DNA of 64,000 nt from Clostridia bacterium (GTDB taxonomy: Bacteria; Bacillota; Clostridia; UMGS1883), in the NCBI GenBank assembly GCA_045656645.1, contig JAZORN010000080.1, positions 2,845 through 66,844 of the forward strand, written 5' to 3'. Below the pieces are notes generated by a model. The model was not told where the DNA came from, ran no database searches, and saw nothing but the letters and a program-made list of their open reading frames with translations. Both the position numbers and the translations under genes were made by a program. Below are positions 9,931 to 56,352 of this stretch, one piece after another. How positions within the stretch are numbered: the stretch's first letter is position 1; each line of letters opens with the position of its first letter.

Positions 9931-9957
9931 AAAAAATCACTTCCAATAATGTTAAAG

Positions 9958-10137
9958 GGGGATTGTTAAGGGGTCCCCTCTTAACGTATAATCCGTCAAA
10001 ACCGGGGGCGTGTACCTCGGTTTTGACTCCTTACAAGGGCTGGCACGGTGAGTGCCGCGCGAGCGAAAGCCCTTACCTCGCGACGAAATATTTTCTTTAG
10101 AAACTTTTCGTCGCGAAAGGATGACTTTGTCATCCTT
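9958..10137. repeat. structured intergenic repeat, family A, copy 1 (about 180 nt, 5 hairpins)
   Basis: Near-identical to 28488-28667 over a central core (gggctggcacggtgagtgccgcgcgagcgaaagccc). The flanking hairpins differ by compensatory base-pair changes. Confidence 0.85.
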
Positions 10138-10386
10138 CTAATTGTTTTCAAGAACTGTGTAAAGCGATGCCGCATCGTTTTTGAGGGTATGCTCCTTTAT
10201 ATCCTCAATTCTTACCTTTATCAGCCTTTCGCCAAAACGGATTTCCACAATATCTCCGCACTTTATTTCAGCAGATGCCTTTGCTACCTTGCCGTTAATG
10301 CTGACACGTCCTGCATCGCACGCCTCATTGGCAACGGTGCGGCGCTTGATTATTCTGGAAACCTTCAAAAATTTATCTATTCGCAT
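10138..10386 (-). CDS. RNA-binding S4 domain protein
   Basis: S4 motif MRIDKFLKVSRIIKRRT...GRVSINGK. I prefer the internal ATG at 10386, which avoids overlap with the upstream gene. The ORF extends to 10413. Confidence 0.75.
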   Translation of the reverse strand: MRIDKFLKVSRIIKRRTVANEACDAGRVSINGKVAKASAEIKCGDIVEIRFGERLIKVRIEDIKEHTLKNDAASLYTVLENN

Positions 10387-10399
10387 AAAATCAATCCTT

Positions 10400-11773
10400 T
10401 TATATGTTTTCACCGAAAAATACGTGGAATGCTCTGTATGTCATATACACGTCAAGCTTTGACACCACTTCGTACGGTGCGTGCATACTGAGCACTGACA
10501 CACCGCAGTCAACCGTTTCAACGCCTAAGTTTGCAACATACTGTGCTATCGTACCGCCGCCACCTGCATCAACCTTGCCAAGCTCTGCAACGTGCCATAA
10601 AATGTCATTATTATTGAAAAGGGTGCGGATTTTTGCCATAAGCTCTGCTGAAGCATCGCTCGAACCGCTTTTTCCGCCTGCACCCGTATATTTTGCCACT
10701 GTAATACCGTAGTTCGTCTTTCCTGCATTGCGCTTTTCGTAAGGTGCAGGGAAGTTGGGGTCAAATGCCGCACTTACATCGGCACTCAGACAATAGCTTT
10801 TATCAAGTGCACGCAAAAGATTAAGCTCTGTCGCACCTTCGCCCGTTTTATCCATGATTTCCATCAGGATAAGTTTCAGGAAATCGCTCCTTGCACCGGT
10901 ATTACCCATACTGCCAACCTCTTCCTTATCGGTAAGAAGACATACGGCAGTTTTTTCGCACGCATCTGTTGTAAGAATTGCCATAAGGGCAGGGTATGCG
11001 CAAACTCTGTCGTCATGACCGTATGCACCGATAAGACCACGGTCAAAGCCTACATCCTTTGCATTTGCAGAGGGTACTATTTCGAGCTCCGCACTGAGGA
11101 AATCCTCTTCACAGATGCCGTATTTCTCATTAAGAATTGTAAGAATGTTTGTCTTTACCGCATCTTTTTCCTCTTCCCCGGCAGGGATTGAGCCGATAAG
11201 AAGATTAAGACTTTCGCCCTCGATTATTTCCGTGGCAGGCTTTTTCATCTGCTCACGTGCAAGATGGGGAAGTAAATCTGTAATAACAAAGGTAATATCG
11301 TCACCCTCGTCACCAATTTTCACATTAACTGTTTCTCCGTTTGTTTTTACAACAACACCGTGCAGTGCAAGGGGGAGTGCCGTCCACTGATATTTTTTAA
11401 TACCGCCGTAGTAGTGTGTTTTAAAATAGGCAAGCTCTCCATCCTCGTAAAGGGGATTGGGTTTTAAATCAAGTCTGGGTGCATCAATGTGTGCGCCTAC
11501 TATATTAACGCCCTCCGACACCTCTTTTTCACCGATTACGGCGAGGATAATTCCCTTAAGCTTGTTTATGGCATAAACCTTGTCGCCCTCTTTAAGGGTA
11601 GCGTAATCTGAAAGGGGTTTAAAACCGCAACTTTGGGCAAGGCGTACAATTTCGCTTACTGCCTCCCTCTCTGTTTTTGCAATGTCGAGAAAGCTTTTAT
11701 ACCCCTCGGAAAACTTAAATACTATTTCCTTGTCAACATCTATTGTCCAACCGTTTTTAAGCTCGTATTTCAT
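10400..11773 (-). CDS. M18-family aminopeptidase
   Basis: 457 aa. Metal-site region GAHIDAPRLDLKPNP and overall M18 (aspartyl aminopeptidase-like) pattern. Confidence 0.8.
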   Translation of the reverse strand: MKYELKNGWTIDVDKEIVFKFSEGYKSFLDIAKTEREAVSEIVRLAQSCGFKPLSDYATLKEGDKVYAINKLKGIILAVIGEKEVSEGVNIVGAHIDAPRLDLKPNPLYEDGELAYFKTHYYGGIKKYQWTALPLALHGVVVKTNGETVNVKIGDEGDDITFVITDLLPHLAREQMKKPATEIIEGESLNLLIGSIPAGEEEKDAVKTNILTILNEKYGICEEDFLSAELEIVPSANAKDVGFDRGLIGAYGHDDRVCAYPALMAILTTDACEKTAVCLLTDKEEVGSMGNTGARSDFLKLILMEIMDKTGEGATELNLLRALDKSYCLSADVSAAFDPNFPAPYEKRNAGKTNYGITVAKYTGAGGKSGSSDASAELMAKIRTLFNNNDILWHVAELGKVDAGGGGTIAQYVANLGVETVDCGVSVLSMHAPYEVVSKLDVYMTYRAFHVFFGENI

Positions 11774-28431: not shown

Positions 28432-28487
28432 TGTATATCCTCCGTTTGTTATGTTTTTTTGGGGATAGAAACTTATAAATTCCAGAT

Positions 28488-28667
28488 GGGGATTGTTAAG
28501 GGAACTCCCTTAACATAAATTTCGTTCAAATCGGGGGCGTGTACCTCGATTTGAACTCCTTGCAAGGGCTGGCACGGTGAGTGCCGCGCGAGCGAAAGCC
28601 CTTACTTCGCAGAAGAATGTTTTTTTATAAAAAACTTCTTCTGCGAGATGATGGCATTGCCATCATC
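28488..28667. repeat. structured intergenic repeat, family A, copy 2
   Basis: Same order of five hairpins as 9958-10137. The last hairpin (28647-28667) overlaps the folD stop codon. Confidence 0.85.
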
Positions 28668-29511
28668 TTTGTATTTCGGCAGCCTTTACGGTGTTTTTCA
28701 TAAGCATTGCTATTGTCATAGGACCTACACCGCCCGGAACGGGTGTAATTGCAGATGCTACAGAAGATACACTGTCATAATCAACGTCACCGCAAAGCTT
28801 TCCGTTTTCGTCACGGTTCATACCTACGTCAATTACAATTGCGCCATCCTTAACCATATCGGCAGTTATAAACTTAGCCTTGCCTACTGCTGCAACGAGG
28901 ATATCTGCACGGCGGCAAACCTCCTTAAGGTCTTTTGTACGGCTGTGGCAGATGGTAACTGTACCGTTTTCGTGCAAAAGAAGCATTGCCTGCGGCTTTC
29001 CTACTATGTTACTTCTTCCCACAACAACACATTCCTTACCACTTACCTCAATACCAGTCAGGCGGATAAGCTCCATAACGCCTGCAGGTGTGCAGGGGAG
29101 AAAGTCAAAGTTACCAATCATAATTTTGCCCACGTTTACGGGGTGGAATGCATCGACATCCTTTTCGGGAAGAATACGAAGAAGTACCTTTTCGCTGTCA
29201 ATACCCTTGGGAAGAGGAAGCTGTACAAGTATTCCGTTTATATCCTTGCGTGCATTGAGTGTGTCGATGAGAGAAAGAAGCTCTTCCTCAGTTGTTTCTT
29301 CGGGGAGTGCGTGCTCCTCAGAATAAATTCCGCAAACCTCGCACGCCTTTTTCTTATTATTTACGTATACACGGCTTGCACTGTCATTACCTACTATAAT
29401 TACTGCAAGTCCGACATTAATGCCGTCTTTCTTTAAGAGTGCCACCTGCTCTCTTAAATCCTCTTTTATCTTTTGTGAGAGTGCCTTTCCGTCTAATATC
29501 TGTGCTGCCAT
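28663..29511 (-). CDS. folD: bifunctional methylenetetrahydrofolate dehydrogenase/cyclohydrolase
   Basis: Canonical N-terminus [16 protein letters not shown], aaggag RBS, 282 aa. Confidence 0.92.
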
Positions 29512-37924: not shown

Positions 37925-37952
37925 AGGGAATGTAAAAAAGTCCAAAGCGCAA

Positions 37953-37990
37953 AAAGGCGGTGTAAAAAATCACTTTTTTACACCGCCTTT
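37953..37990 (+). terminator. terminator hairpin after topB
   Basis: 17-bp stem aaaggcggtgtaaaaaa / ttttttacaccgccttt. Confidence 0.7.
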
Positions 37991-52943: not shown

Positions 52944-53092
52944 AAAAAAAGGAAGCTACCGATTTGGTAACTTCCAATTATACATCGTTATTCCTTAGCT
53001 GTTGCTCAGGCATCCCTACGTTGGCATTATCCAAATCAGGTTCTCGGTCGAAGGTCATACCTTCCTCTCAGCCTGTAATACAAGCTCCCGTT
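52944..53092 (-). promoter_or_regulatory. TPP (THI-box) riboswitch with terminator expression platform
   Basis: Minus strand reads ...ggctgagag...gaacctgatttggataatgccaacgtagggatg..., which is the THI-box core. It is followed by hairpin ggaagttacc/ggtagcttcc plus ttttttt (52944-52975), directly upstream of thiS. Confidence 0.9.
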
Positions 53093-53262
53093 TTTTTATT
53101 TATTTTTGTATATTAAATTAAATTATTCCCACTCGCTCATGGTTTTGTAACCTCAACTGAATAAGCTAATAAATCGTGTTTCGCAGTGGTCATATTCTAT
53201 ATATTACCATAATTCTTTTGACTTTTCAATATTTTGTTGCCAAAATGTTGCCACAGCTTTTG

Positions 53263-55146
53263 CTATTTATGTTTTCGTATATATTGAAATATCAATTTTG
53301 ATAAATCTTTTATACTATCATCTAGTTCCTTAGCGGTGTTTTTATGGTCAATCAATCCGGAAGAGGAATGTGATATCGGATTAGAATTCCGCAGGTTATG
53401 TGCAGTTGATATTATAGTTTCGCTATCTTCTATTTCTGCATAAAACCCAAGAAAAGCCTTTTCTTTATAAAATCCTTTATAATTGGGCTTTTTTCCCTCA
53501 TGGTTTTCATTAAATACAAAATCCAAGTCGGCAGTTACTCTGTCAAAAAAGTTTTTATAATATGCAAATGCAGCCATGTTGTTTTTTCTCTTTGTTTCAC
53601 ACAAGTACATAAAATATAAGTATGCCGCCTTGTTATCTTTCTTAATAATATCACAAAGCCGATTGATACGATGCGGTTTTATCGAAATGACAAAACTTTC
53701 TTTGCACCCATCTGTGTAATATCTGAATAAATTTGGATGGTATTCCTTTATTATATTCAATAAATCCCAATGCTGAAATTTACTTTGTATTAAATATGAG
53801 ATAGCAATTGTTGTATCATAAGAATTCCACTTACCACTTCGATAACGAGTAAACAATTGATTCAGAAACGCTCTTATTGCTTTACCGCATTGCGTTTTCA
53901 TAATCATTACTGTTAATCTTTTTGGATCTAAATTTATGAAAGCTATACTTTGTTTGATTAACTCAAGAATTTGATTGGCTACTTCTTGTGTATGTAGCTC
54001 TTCTTCATTTTCATACACAAAATAATTAAAAACTTCATTTGGAGTAAATTCGATATCTTTTGAAGTAAAGTGTTTATCTATAAGCTCATTATACCTCTCT
54101 ACATCAACACTATCAAAAATAAGTTCATCTGATAAGTCCTGTAAAAATCTCAACAAAGCACCTTTAAACAAGTCTTCTATGTTGTGTTTCTGTCCATTAT
54201 AGTATTCGTCATACAATGATTTTTTTAGTTCCTCATTTATTTCTGATGCCTTTCTGATACAACACTTCTTCGTATTCAAGGATAAACCATATTCTTTTAA
54301 TATAGAGGAATATTCATTCCTTATTTCATTATAAGTATCTCCTAAATACATCAAAGATTTATCAGAAGCTATTAAAATATACAAATCATCCACATATCTA
54401 ACCATACGAAAAGATGTAATATCAGGAACCTTTGCATCTAAAAATTCATGTAGTTTTAAATCAACATTGTCTAAATAAACGACAGTTGACAGATACGATG
54501 AAGCAACACTATTTTCTATCAGTGGAAATCTCCCATCACCACAATATGTAAGTAACTCCTTATAAATTTGCAATTGTGTTTGCGAAAATTTAACATCAGC
54601 AGCATTACATACAGCATCAATTTGAGATATAAGTTTATCTACATTAATATTTGAGAAAAAGTTAGTAATGTCCGTTTTTATAAAATACTGATATCCGTCA
54701 ATACAAGCATTTAATTCTTTAAAGAAATTATCATAATCTTGCTTATACTTAGGGCGCATAAATTCATAATTTCCCGCATAATAAACCGAAACATTTTGTG
54801 GTCTTATGGGATTATACTCATTAAATATTTCTTTTCCAACTGACTGTAGCACTAAATATAAAATTGGTGAAATAAGCGATGAATTTCTAAAACTTCCATC
54901 GCTTTTTTGCAAATAATTTTCAGACTGTTGCATAGCATCAGGAAAAAATACTATTGACGATGTTTTTATATATCGCTCATAAAAATCTTCACTTGATATG
55001 TACCCTTTGTCTTCTCTAGAAATTTTAGTGAAGGGAAACCATTGTAAGTATGCTTTTGCAGAAAGAGTGTTTAATGAAAAATACATTTCACAAATACTTT
55101 TCCATGTATCATAACTTATACCTAACAATAGAACACCTCCACCCAC
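53263..55146 (-). CDS. AbiA-like reverse transcriptase with C-terminal HEPN-like domain
   Basis: RT motifs: SLISPILYLV (1/2), IKTDITNFFSNI (A), PLIENSVASSYLSTVVYL (B'), RYVDDLYILI (C; YVDD at 54385-54396), YGLSLNTKKC (D). The ~330-aa helical C-terminal region has LRNSNPISH (Rx6H, 53368-53391). The start could instead be the TTG at 55128, after ggaggtg. Confidence 0.8.
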   Translation of the reverse strand: MGGGVLLLGISYDTWKSICEMYFSLNTLSAKAYLQWFPFTKISREDKGYISSEDFYERYIKTSSIVFFPDAMQQSENYLQKSDGSFRNSSLISPILYLVLQSVGKEIFNEYNPIRPQNVSVYYAGNYEFMRPKYKQDYDNFFKELNACIDGYQYFIKTDITNFFSNINVDKLISQIDAVCNAADVKFSQTQLQIYKELLTYCGDGRFPLIENSVASSYLSTVVYLDNVDLKLHEFLDAKVPDITSFRMVRYVDDLYILIASDKSLMYLGDTYNEIRNEYSSILKEYGLSLNTKKCCIRKASEINEELKKSLYDEYYNGQKHNIEDLFKGALLRFLQDLSDELIFDSVDVERYNELIDKHFTSKDIEFTPNEVFNYFVYENEEELHTQEVANQILELIKQSIAFINLDPKRLTVMIMKTQCGKAIRAFLNQLFTRYRSGKWNSYDTTIAISYLIQSKFQHWDLLNIIKEYHPNLFRYYTDGCKESFVISIKPHRINRLCDIIKKDNKAAYLYFMYLCETKRKNNMAAFAYYKNFFDRVTADLDFVFNENHEGKKPNYKGFYKEKAFLGFYAEIEDSETIISTAHNLRNSNPISHSSSGLIDHKNTAKELDDSIKDLSKLIFQYIRKHK

Positions 55147-55183: not shown

Positions 55184-56311
55184 TCACATTTCCTTAATAA
55201 AACCTATATTATATAACTTGTCCACTAGTGCAATTATATTTTCTGTTTGCACATCATCACTATCAAAAACAACAGACGCTACATAATCAGGTTTCTGATT
55301 ACGTTCATGTGCGTTCATATCGAAAATATAAAACTTAAGTCTAAGGTCATCACATACATATCCGCCAATATGTGTTTTGTCTACGTCAAATTCAGAATAA
55401 TGTGAAATAATTGATGAACCATCCTCAGCGGAAATAGTGTAGCTATAGCTATCTTTCAAGTGCAATCTTATATAGCTGGTTTCTTTTTCATCAAATAACC
55501 GGAATAAATTTTTAAGCAGCGTAAATGCTTTAAGGAAATTATATGGTGACACAAAGAAACTAATTCTTGCACAATTGTCATGTGCAGTATGATTTGTTCC
55601 AATCGTTTTATTCTCCTTGCGGTAAATTATTTTAACACCATTAGCAACTATACAAGCGGTTCTTTCACTGTGGTATTTATCATTTCTTGAAAAAGAAATA
55701 TGATTATCTTCTAAATAACCAACAATGCTATTAAAAAATTTTTCAATATCGTATTTGATGCTTTTTCCATCTACTGTTTGTTCTCCGTATATTATGCACT
55801 CAGCTTTTTCGATTACATTTTCAAAATTAACTGTATTAAATGATTCCGCAGAAAGATTCTTAATAACTTCTAAGTAATCGTTATGTTCAAAAGCATTTGA
55901 AAAATGGTATTCAAATGTTCTATTTACAATGGTAATAAAATTATTAAGACTATCTTCTGAAGATATATTGAACCCTTGCAGCAAGTTGAGTGGCGCTTTT
56001 AATGAGCCAATATCCACACCTATTCCTACGGGAATAACTTGAATTCCTTTCGAATAAGCATAACCCGCTTCAAAATATATCCAACCCGAAGAAATAGAGT
56101 TTTCAGTTACAAAAACAAACATAATTTGTGCTGCTTGCAACCCTTCTTCTATTTTATGAATCCAATTAGTACCAAAAGGGATGCTTTGTCCATCACTAGA
56201 CATAAAAATATCCATAACTCCGCCCGTTACCGAGTCCAACTTATTTTTTATTGAAAGAATTATATCCTTATCTTTCGATGAATGACTAAAAAACAATGTG
56301 GGTTTGCCCAT
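55184..56311 (-). CDS. TIR-domain protein with uncharacterised C-terminal domain
   Basis: N-terminal TIR/ThsB-like pattern LFFSHSSKDKD...NWIHKIEEGL...MFVFVTENSISSGWIYFEAGYA, with a candidate catalytic Glu at 56069-56071. About 240 further residues match nothing I recognise. ATG at 56311 (RBS gaggtga). The ORF opens at a GTG at 56332. Confidence 0.7.
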   Translation of the reverse strand: MGKPTLFFSHSSKDKDIILSIKNKLDSVTGGVMDIFMSSDGQSIPFGTNWIHKIEEGLQAAQIMFVFVTENSISSGWIYFEAGYAYSKGIQVIPVGIGVDIGSLKAPLNLLQGFNISSEDSLNNFITIVNRTFEYHFSNAFEHNDYLEVIKNLSAESFNTVNFENVIEKAECIIYGEQTVDGKSIKYDIEKFFNSIVGYLEDNHISFSRNDKYHSERTACIVANGVKIIYRKENKTIGTNHTAHDNCARISFFVSPYNFLKAFTLLKNLFRLFDEKETSYIRLHLKDSYSYTISAEDGSSIISHYSEFDVDKTHIGGYVCDDLRLKFYIFDMNAHERNQKPDYVASVVFDSDDVQTENIIALVDKLYNIGFIKEM

Positions 56312-56352
56312 ATTTATTTGTTCACCTCTCACTTTCTAAACACGAATAAATA

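Follow-up and report, generated by a model that had tools for sequence, protein, structure and literature searches.

A structured, uncatalogued interspersed repeat of gut Clostridia whose copies begin at gene ends

Two copies of a structured element of about 180 nt lie in a 64,000-nt stretch of a Clostridia bacterium (GTDB lineage UMGS1883; contig JAZORN010000080.1, positions 2,845 to 66,844), henceforth termed the window. We find that this element is an uncatalogued, mosaic interspersed repeat family of gut Clostridia. Nearly all copies begin within a few bases of the end of the gene in front and read in its direction; comparison among copies argues that the fold is kept by purifying selection, and at least one site was filled recently. 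Interspersed structured repeats such as REP/BIME, BOX, ERIC, Correia and bcr are already known. What is new here is a combination of properties: a large selected fold with invariant loops at orthologous sites, an orientation and a starting point tied almost absolutely to the preceding gene and its exact end, and recent movement without a recognisable mobiliser. The element may act as a co-transcribed RNA module, a reading that is weighed below against several rivals.

Results

The window belongs to a metagenome-assembled genome (MAG) of 2.14 Mb that is 85% complete and comprises 109 contigs (G000 in the coordinates below). This genome contains 15 full or near-full copies of the element at 76-100% identity, together with one fragment and two solo copies of its first hairpin, P1. 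A covariance model built from 66 distinct copies matched 34 of the 39 genomes of the genus, with 1-28 copies in each, and in another genus of this family recovered divergent forms, with up to 23 copies. Across the order 49 of 87 genomes gave matches, and across the class 19 of 399 sampled Clostridia did, the latter belonging to several families and carrying sporadic divergent forms. The interspersed copies thus number 15 in the window genome and hundreds in its relatives. According to public records the hosts are Clostridia or Oscillospiraceae MAGs from the gut of goat, deer, buffalo and human. A metagenome scan added 34 further copies of the same kind and no novel form, and no match was found in phage and viral contigs. 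The supposition in the preliminary description of this DNA that the element belongs to no known RNA family agrees with a search of the whole window with Rfam 15 at gathering thresholds, which returned only a thiamine pyrophosphate (TPP) riboswitch elsewhere. Copy 1, searched at E up to 10, gave only chance-level matches (best 24 bits against a threshold of 59), and the literature searched holds no description of the family.

On the sense strand the modules follow one another in a fixed order: P1, the gene-end hairpin; P2, a long variable hairpin; the conserved core P3-P4; and an optional P5 with the tail AAUCCCC. Both window copies have the minus strand as their sense strand, and their parts are located as follows (window coordinates).

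9957-10137, minus (sense) strand: element copy 1, whole, between an S4-domain gene and chrA; covariance-model match G000:C80:12799-12984, i.e., window 9955-10140, 210 bits
10138-10140, minus strand: stop codon (TAG) ending the S4-domain gene (10138-10413); hairpin P1 of copy 1 directly adjoins it
10117-10137, minus strand: P1 of copy 1, gene-end-abutting hairpin, AAGGAUGAC-AAA-GUCAUCCUU
10078-10116, minus strand: P2 of copy 1, long variable hairpin of ~17 bp with a 1-nt bulge
10035-10074, minus strand: P3 core, copy 1: outer stem of 7 bp, asymmetric loop of 11 nt that is invariant (UUCGCUCGCGC), inner stem of 5 bp, loop UCACC
10028-10034, minus strand: P3/P4 joint of copy 1, GUAAGGA, single-stranded according to the alignment; with the first G of P4 it gives AAGGAG (AGGUG in other copies), which is Shine-Dalgarno-like
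9995-10027, minus strand: P4 of copy 1, with the A.C position, the U.G closing pair and the ACAC tetraloop
9965-9985, minus strand: P5 of copy 1, GUUAAGAGGGG-A-CCCCUUAAC; P5 and tail form the optional 3' module
9957-9964, minus strand: 3' tail of copy 1, the sharp element end, AAUCCCCC
28488-28667, minus strand: element copy 2, whole, between folD and a gyrB/parE-like gene; covariance-model match at window 28485-28670, 208 bits
28663-28665, minus strand: stop codon (TGA) ending folD (28663-29511); it falls within the P1 5' arm of copy 2
28647-28667, minus strand: P1 of copy 2, GAUGAUGGC-AAU-GCCAUCAUC
28607-28646, minus strand: P2 of copy 2
28564-28603, minus strand: P3 core of copy 2
28524-28556, minus strand: P4 of copy 2
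28488-28514, minus strand: P5 and tail of copy 2

These two copies had been placed at 9958-10137 and 28488-28667 in the preliminary description, positions that hold, and they show no relatedness beyond the alignment of ~180 nt. Exact matches to a 42-nt core, CAAGGGCTGGCACGGTGAGTGCCGCGCGAGCGAAAGCCCTTA, number two in the window (10034-10075 and 28563-28604), with a chance expectation of 0. The hairpin arms that had been compared between the copies (gtcaaaaccg/cggttttgac versus gttcaaatcg/cgatttgaac in hairpin 2 and tcgcgacgaaa/tttcgtcgcga versus tcgcagaagaa/ttcttctgcga in hairpin 4) read as quoted, and every difference between them is compensated. Hairpin 2 had also been assigned an invariant 13-nt loop; on the minus strand this segment is mostly paired and the true loop is the tetraloop ACAC, because divergent relatives show GG-U/ACAY/G-CC at this place, with U.G or C-G as the closing pair. 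When the two copies were folded and compared with shuffles, the sense strand gave z = -7.2 and -11.4 and the antisense strand z = -8.4.

The fold is well supported on the alignment of the 66 copies, where it comprises six helices and 60 pairs with 94.8% of cells paired. Both sides changed in 37 pairs and in 422 cells; these values were not reached for any measure in 500 column shuffles, and sliding the partners by 1-3 columns yielded at most 51 double-change cells. P1 has 98.5% of its cells paired and double changes in 5 of 7 pairs. The bulged P2 hairpin of ~17 bp carries U.G or the isosteric C.A as a pair at its base, and P4 is a 14-pair hairpin with a bulged pyrimidine, an ACAY tetraloop closed by U.G or C-G, and a variable position, mostly A.C but A-U or G-C in some copies. 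An AU-rich joint leads from P4 to P5 (UUAAGGGG...CCCCUUAA) and thence to the tail. Distant relatives keep all helices with different sequence and with unchanged loops. Mutual information with average product correction, calculated on 82 copies, recovered the helices and the isosteric U.G/C.A pair at the P2 base and no pseudoknot or tertiary pair. Two further candidate pairings were discarded, one between the tail AAUCC and the P4/P5 joint (73% paired, weak) and one between the P1 3' arm and the AAGGA joint (no covariation among P1 variants, judged by eye).

Some modules are separable. At one orthologous locus three species carry P5 with the tail and three lack exactly that piece, and in a few copies the tail is followed by a weak 25-nt trailer (...CGCAAATTYCTATAC...). 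Solo P1 hairpins (GGCTGAC-AAR/AAT-GTCAGCC) that abut a stop codon while the rest of the element is absent were observed at G000 C62:47079-47095 and C48:10815-10831, so P1 is either a separable module or a footprint. A coding role for the 59-aa open reading frame (ORF) that crosses copy 1 at 9996-10175 (minus strand) was rejected, because in the alignment of 66 copies the loop columns of P2 and P5 vary in length by 1-3 nt, enough to throw any frame out of register; other copies break this one. Both mechanical ORFs through copy 1, this one and a 45-aa frame at 9963-10100 (plus strand), are repeat artefacts with a risk of miscalling. The covariance model allows such 180-nt stretches to be annotated, which at present inflate the 'intergenic' space and spawn spurious small ORFs such as that at 9996-10175 (minus strand).

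The element follows a position rule. All 15 copies of the window genome have the same orientation relative to the neighbouring gene and start at its stop codon. Among 102 copies with an intact 5' end, 95 follow a long sense ORF whose stop codon has its last base between -6 and +6 nt of the first P1 pair, a rule that held when stops from -45 to +60 were allowed to compete. Copy 1 starts right after the TAG of the S4-domain gene, and copy 2 overlaps the folD TGA. In 19 copies the stop is a TGA inside P1 (GGA-UGA or GAUGAUGG). The stops upstream of P1 are TAA in 64 copies, TAG in 8 and TGA in 4, compared with 65/10/25% genome-wide; this deficit means that TGA-ending genes are nearly always aligned on the element's own TGA. 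The idea that the element brings its own TAA was abandoned, since overall stop usage (67/24/8% TAA/TGA/TAG) equals that of the genome (65/25/10%). Hairpins behind 1626 other genes of the window genome, used as a control, start at -9 to +45 with a flat distribution (7% at -9..+4), which shows that stop abutment is not a general habit of a compact genome.

Orientation is constrained as well. About 99% of copies are in sense, and orientation tracks the gene and not the replication fork or chromosome arm, because opposite copies 1-5 kb apart each sit behind their own gene. The preliminary description emphasised that the copies lie upstream of chrA and gyrB; this context is uninformative, the element being anchored to the preceding gene's 3' end rather than to what lies downstream. 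Exceptions are few. Two copies from genus relatives (L040 2130-2580 and L037 1227-1676) lack P5 and lie 5-8 nt past the 3' end of a large signal recognition particle (SRP) RNA gene, identified at both loci by Rfam RF01854 at 195-198 bits, and are followed by the native terminator. A single inverted copy (L035 1496-1684, relative G002) runs antisense to its two neighbouring genes, its tail and the stop of a gyrB/parE-like gene being 13 nt apart, and one copy lies behind a terminator.

Downstream of the element, a co-directional gene starts within 150 nt in at least 64 of 115 copies, and a terminator-like hairpin follows in 27 of 115. At the murC locus the native terminator is kept downstream of the inserted element. 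The neighbouring genes are ordinary housekeeping genes. Those beside the window copies were confirmed by Pfam as encoding an S4-domain protein, a chromate transporter, FolD and a GyrB/ParE-like topoisomerase subunit; those in front of other copies, named by eye without a family search, include murC-, dapA-, ATP synthase gamma (atpG)-, groES-, mnmA-, uppP- and phosphoglucomutase-like genes. Most copies are operon-internal, for example between an AtpG-like/atpD-like (ATP synthase gamma/beta) pair or between a GroES-like gene and its downstream neighbour, these genes being named by eye and not by a family search. At locus L009 (G000 C7:183-258) a copy is followed 14 nt downstream by a same-strand tRNA-Arg(CCG) gene, so the element can also sit between a protein gene and a tRNA gene.

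Orthologous copies are under constraint. In ten pairs of orthologous filled sites, element identity was 0.66-0.98, compared with 0.33-0.88 at fourfold-degenerate sites of the gene in front, and the element was the more conserved in 10 of 10 pairs. One orthologous site followed through six species shows compensated changes in P2, P3 and P4. Slow evolution together with in-place compensation implies that the fold is maintained where a copy sits and not merely inherited from different master copies; on this comparative evidence it is kept by purifying selection. The preliminary description had argued for a structure under selection and against a decaying repeat, and the strong covariation in 66 copies, the in-place compensation in six species and the conservation above fourfold sites bear this out. 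It had named a REP- or MITE-like repeat without covariation as the finding that would speak against selection: one half of that picture applies, as the element is multi-copy and recently mobile, and the other half fails, as covariation is present.

Evidence for recent movement comes from filled and empty sites. The window genome is empty at 68 of the 78 sites that other species have filled. Conversely, the murC site is filled in the window genome only (1 of 30 genomes) and empty in the 29 others of the genus, one of which has a murC 3' end 98% identical to that of the window genome; this distribution indicates that the element moved recently. Paralogs at non-orthologous sites reach 96.5% identity, and their similarity starts sharply at (A)GG[AC]TGAC and stops at AATCCCC. 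These ends are not complementary, so terminal inverted repeats are absent, and no direct repeats indicative of a target duplication were found at the four youngest copies or in the filled/empty comparisons. In filled/empty pairs the junction falls at or within the stop codon. Some pairs have the last 1-2 codons replaced and use the element TGA (LNK* to LNG*, LQR* to LHR*), and in one pair a TAA is split as T|AA.

A search for the mobilising enzyme gave no candidate. Y1_Tnp is absent from six copy-rich genomes with 6-18 copies each, the window genome among them, and does not track the element; eight loci with RAYT-like genes in relatives have no element within 2 kb. Y2_Tnp (IS91-type) was found in 2, TnpB in 1 and reverse transcriptase in 12 of the 39 genus genomes, none of them tracking copy number. 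No long copy with a gene between both ends was present among 240 loci, and beside the 5' end the left flank shows only stop-codon-like A/T richness and no conserved target word.

Discussion

We assign a probability of roughly one half to the reading that the element is a co-transcribed, selected 3'-untranslated region (3'-UTR) or intercistronic RNA module belonging to the BIME/BOX kind of mosaic repeat, with a function that we infer. Co-transcription is suggested by the orientation lock, the operon-internal positions, the retained downstream terminators and two conserved sense U.G pairs, which in the 66-copy alignment occupy columns 27-68 (49 copies) and 134-139 (65 copies), the second turning into C-G in divergent relatives. 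In such a scheme the element would be transcribed with the gene in front, as its 3'-UTR or as an intercistronic spacer, and would act in cis on the fate of the transcript. P1 at the stop codon could cap the upstream cistron against 3'-to-5' exonucleases, and the ~17-bp P2 duplex would be a likely site for a double-strand endonuclease, uncoupling the two cistrons. The invariant P3-P4 loops might bind a protein or build a tertiary fold, and P3 with the Shine-Dalgarno-like joint might protect the 5' end of the downstream fragment and offer a protein platform. If the element tunes mRNA ends in operons such as the AtpG-like/AtpD-like, GroES-like and folD-topoisomerase pairs, it would add to gene expression, in uncultured bacteria that abound in gut and rumen, a layer that is widespread and so far unannotated.

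Several observations weigh against the co-transcribed module. The proposed capping, cleavage and protein binding are drawn by analogy with REP, ERIC, Correia and STAB-SD elements, and a role as stabiliser leaves the position rule itself unexplained. The copies behind the SRP RNA gene mean that a terminating ribosome, or translation termination, is not strictly required. The wobble counts do not speak for the sense strand, with 26 G.U versus 51 A.C cells on the first structure. Once P4 is read in its corrected register, 52 of 66 copies have a non-standard pair at 131-143; in the typical copy it is A.C, and on the opposite strand this would be G.U. One-sided intermediates (G.U) are seldom seen and many of the switches involve transversion pairs, a pattern also compatible with hairpins in DNA or with mutation by template switching. 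RNA and single-stranded DNA are both candidates for the molecule in which the selected fold acts, as wobble counts favour neither strand.

The main rival, which we consider somewhat unlikely, is purely selfish, non-autonomous DNA whose hairpins would be recognised by a trans-acting single-strand or site-specific recombinase, in the style of IS200/IS605-PATE, REP-RAYT or IS91. RNA structure would then be incidental, and position and orientation would reflect tolerated insertion or DNA made single-stranded during transcription. Sharp ends without terminal inverted repeats or target duplication, the recent murC gain in 1 of 30 genomes, the paralogs 95-96% identical at non-orthologous sites, and a sense strand with rare G.U intermediates and no wobble bias would all be expected of such DNA. 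No partner gene was found for it, however: Y1_Tnp, RAYT-like genes, Y2_Tnp, TnpB and reverse transcriptase do not track the element; nor does a conserved target word stand beside the 5' end. That orthologous copies evolve more slowly than fourfold sites and are compensated in place is unexpected for a parked non-autonomous copy, and a sense orientation of ~99% cannot stem from replication-strand bias. Neither selfish DNA nor the co-transcribed module accounts for a start within a few bases of the gene end. One process could do so, although we regard it as quite unlikely: an insertion process of gut Clostridia that would home in on the 3' terminus of a gene's functional RNA (for an mRNA its stop codon, for SRP RNA its mature end) and place a hairpin-led module there in sense, with no inverted ends or target duplication. 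It might be coupled to transcription or translation, or proceed via RNA, and might be shared by several unrelated repeat families of these lineages, including two more in the window genome, with P1 as the common adapter. If the position rule does reflect an insertion mechanism, this would be a gene-end recognition used by no described transposition system.

Three other functions fare worse. P3-P5 might be cut from the mRNA to serve in trans as a multi-copy small RNA or as a protein sponge, acting through the loops UUCGCUCGCGC, UCACC, ACAC and AAGGAG. Many copies per genome, a conserved single-stranded Shine-Dalgarno-like joint, and loops that stay invariant on variable stems even in distant families speak for such a role; yet a range of 0-28 copies within one genus is odd for an essential partner system and the gene-end rule would be superfluous, which makes it very unlikely in our estimation. 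We give hardly any credence to an antisense unit, in which transcription from a plus-strand promoter in the P5-tail would run across P4 to P1 in reverse complement, with reverse-complement P1 as a terminator at the edge of the upstream ORF. A promoter-like antisense array (TTGTTA, a 17-19 nt spacer, TAAAAT/TATAAT) does occur in 30 of 66 copies compared with 0 of 66 shuffles. In copy 1 a sigma-70-like promoter can be read in the P5-tail on the plus strand (9963-9992), which may be a coincidence of conserved sequence. Both window copies score as terminator-like at P1 on the plus strand, and sense A.C cells become G.U on the antisense strand. The T-tract past reverse-complement P1 is nevertheless not enriched (32% against a background of 25-29%), the P5-tail is dispensable, as P1-P4 persist in orthologous copies that lack it, both conserved U.G pairs of the sense strand would turn into C.A mismatches, and head-on transcription should be costly for copies that are mostly operon-internal. 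A ligand-sensing or self-cleaving RNA carried on a repeat, i.e., a new riboswitch or ribozyme, appears just as improbable. It would explain the highly conserved asymmetric internal loop and the several covarying helices, but Rfam gave no match even at E up to 10, the neighbouring genes have no common function, mutual information yields no covarying pseudoknot or tertiary pair, and the element lies downstream, not upstream, of the gene that it follows.

Comparison with known systems

By analogy, the element appears nearest to REP/BIME and BOX-type repeats, which are modular, structured and co-transcribed. We regard it as a structured interspersed repeat, with a modest chance that its gene-end targeting is new. 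The classical role of REP sequences is protection of the mRNA 3' end. Many REPs reportedly lie within ~15 nt of a stop codon and are said to stall terminating ribosomes, a finding attributed to Liang, Rudd and Deutscher in 2015. Like REP/BIME of enterobacteria and pseudomonads, which are associated with RAYT transposases, the element is extragenic, palindromic, multi-copy and apparently transcribed with the upstream gene, and a BIME is likewise a mosaic of modules. REP units are, however, single hairpins of ~35 nt with a conserved GTAG head that occur in both orientations, whereas the element has 180 nt with five or six ordered helices, invariant loops, ~99% sense orientation, a tighter position of -6..+6 nt and no RAYT association. 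It is not built as the 20-40-nt palindrome, often in inverted doublets, of a REP/REPIN unit, P1 alone being REP-like, and a Y1 gene flanked by the repeat, as in REPIN-RAYT systems, was not found.

Among repeats of Firmicutes, the bcr1-type of the Bacillus cereus group resembles the element in its length of ~155 nt, its predicted conserved RNA fold and its transcription with neighbours. Unlike the element, bcr1 has a reported TTTAT target duplication and MITE-like ends, and we know of no stop-codon rule for it. The BOX, RUP and SPRITE repeats of Streptococcus pneumoniae are structured and interspersed, shorter than 200 bp, co-transcribed and thought to affect mRNA stability, and they are over-represented between convergent genes (PMC3049150). 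BOX is built from modules (boxA-boxB-boxC) that are gained and lost, as in the element, but BOX and RUP carry terminal inverted repeats and target duplications (PMC3049150), neither of which the element has. It further differs from BOX and RUP in that most of its copies lie between co-directional genes at a position fixed to the gene end.

Palindrome-associated transposable elements (PATEs) of the IS200/IS605 type share the lack of inverted ends and target duplication, hairpins at or near both ends and strand-specific insertion. Their architecture of subterminal hairpins is indeed seen here, with P1 at the 5' end and P5 8 nt from the 3' end. PATEs need a Y1 transposase and, 5' of their left end, a conserved target of 4-5 nt. 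Neither was found for the element, no TnpA/TnpB partner tracks it, and the orientation of PATEs follows the replication fork while that of the element follows the gene. The attC sites of integrons are likewise folded sites in fixed orientation that start at or overlap the stop of the ORF in front; an attC, however, is one long imperfect hairpin that moves with its gene as a cassette in tandem arrays, whereas the element is dispersed behind housekeeping genes in conserved synteny, and orthologous genes occur with and without it. The terminal inverted repeats and target-site duplication of MITEs (miniature inverted-repeat transposable elements) are both absent. The element is also no intrinsic terminator, which would need a GC-rich hairpin and a U-tract behind it on the transcribed strand: neither window copy contains a terminator-like site on its sense strand, and terminal copies are followed by separate native terminators. 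The covariation expected of a generic structured cis-acting RNA is present, with 37 of 60 pairs double-changed and 0 of 500 shuffles equal.

Other repeats and features of the window

Two further repeat families were noticed in the window genome, and the start at a gene end recurs in both. Family B (...GGGAATGTAAAAAAAGTCCAGACCGCAAAAAGGC...), with 19 BLAST matches in the genome, occurs in the window at 37926-37958 and elsewhere at C30:23776, C103:55873 and 60166, C68:5196 and 14 more places. Several of its copies stand directly after stop codons, including sites that hold the 180-nt element in other species. Family C has ~7 copies, among them C40:46876-46982, C89:7972-8031 and others on C38, C54, C79 and C81. 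It opens with a stop-abutting hairpin, which is P1-like in C89 (GGAAGAC-ATA-GTCTTCC), and continues with the modules AGCGATATAAAT...TTTGCGATATAC...GCGATATG.

The TPP riboswitch, the sole Rfam match in the window, lies at 52996-53101 on the minus strand and scores 60.7 bits against a gathering score of 54.3. On the same strand, a 627-aa AbiA-type abortive-infection protein with RVT_1 and HEPN_AbiA_CTD domains (E = 2e-57) is encoded at 53263-55146, adjoined by the gene of a 382-aa TIR-domain protein at 55184-56332. The two are likely an anti-phage defence pair that is unrelated to the repeat.

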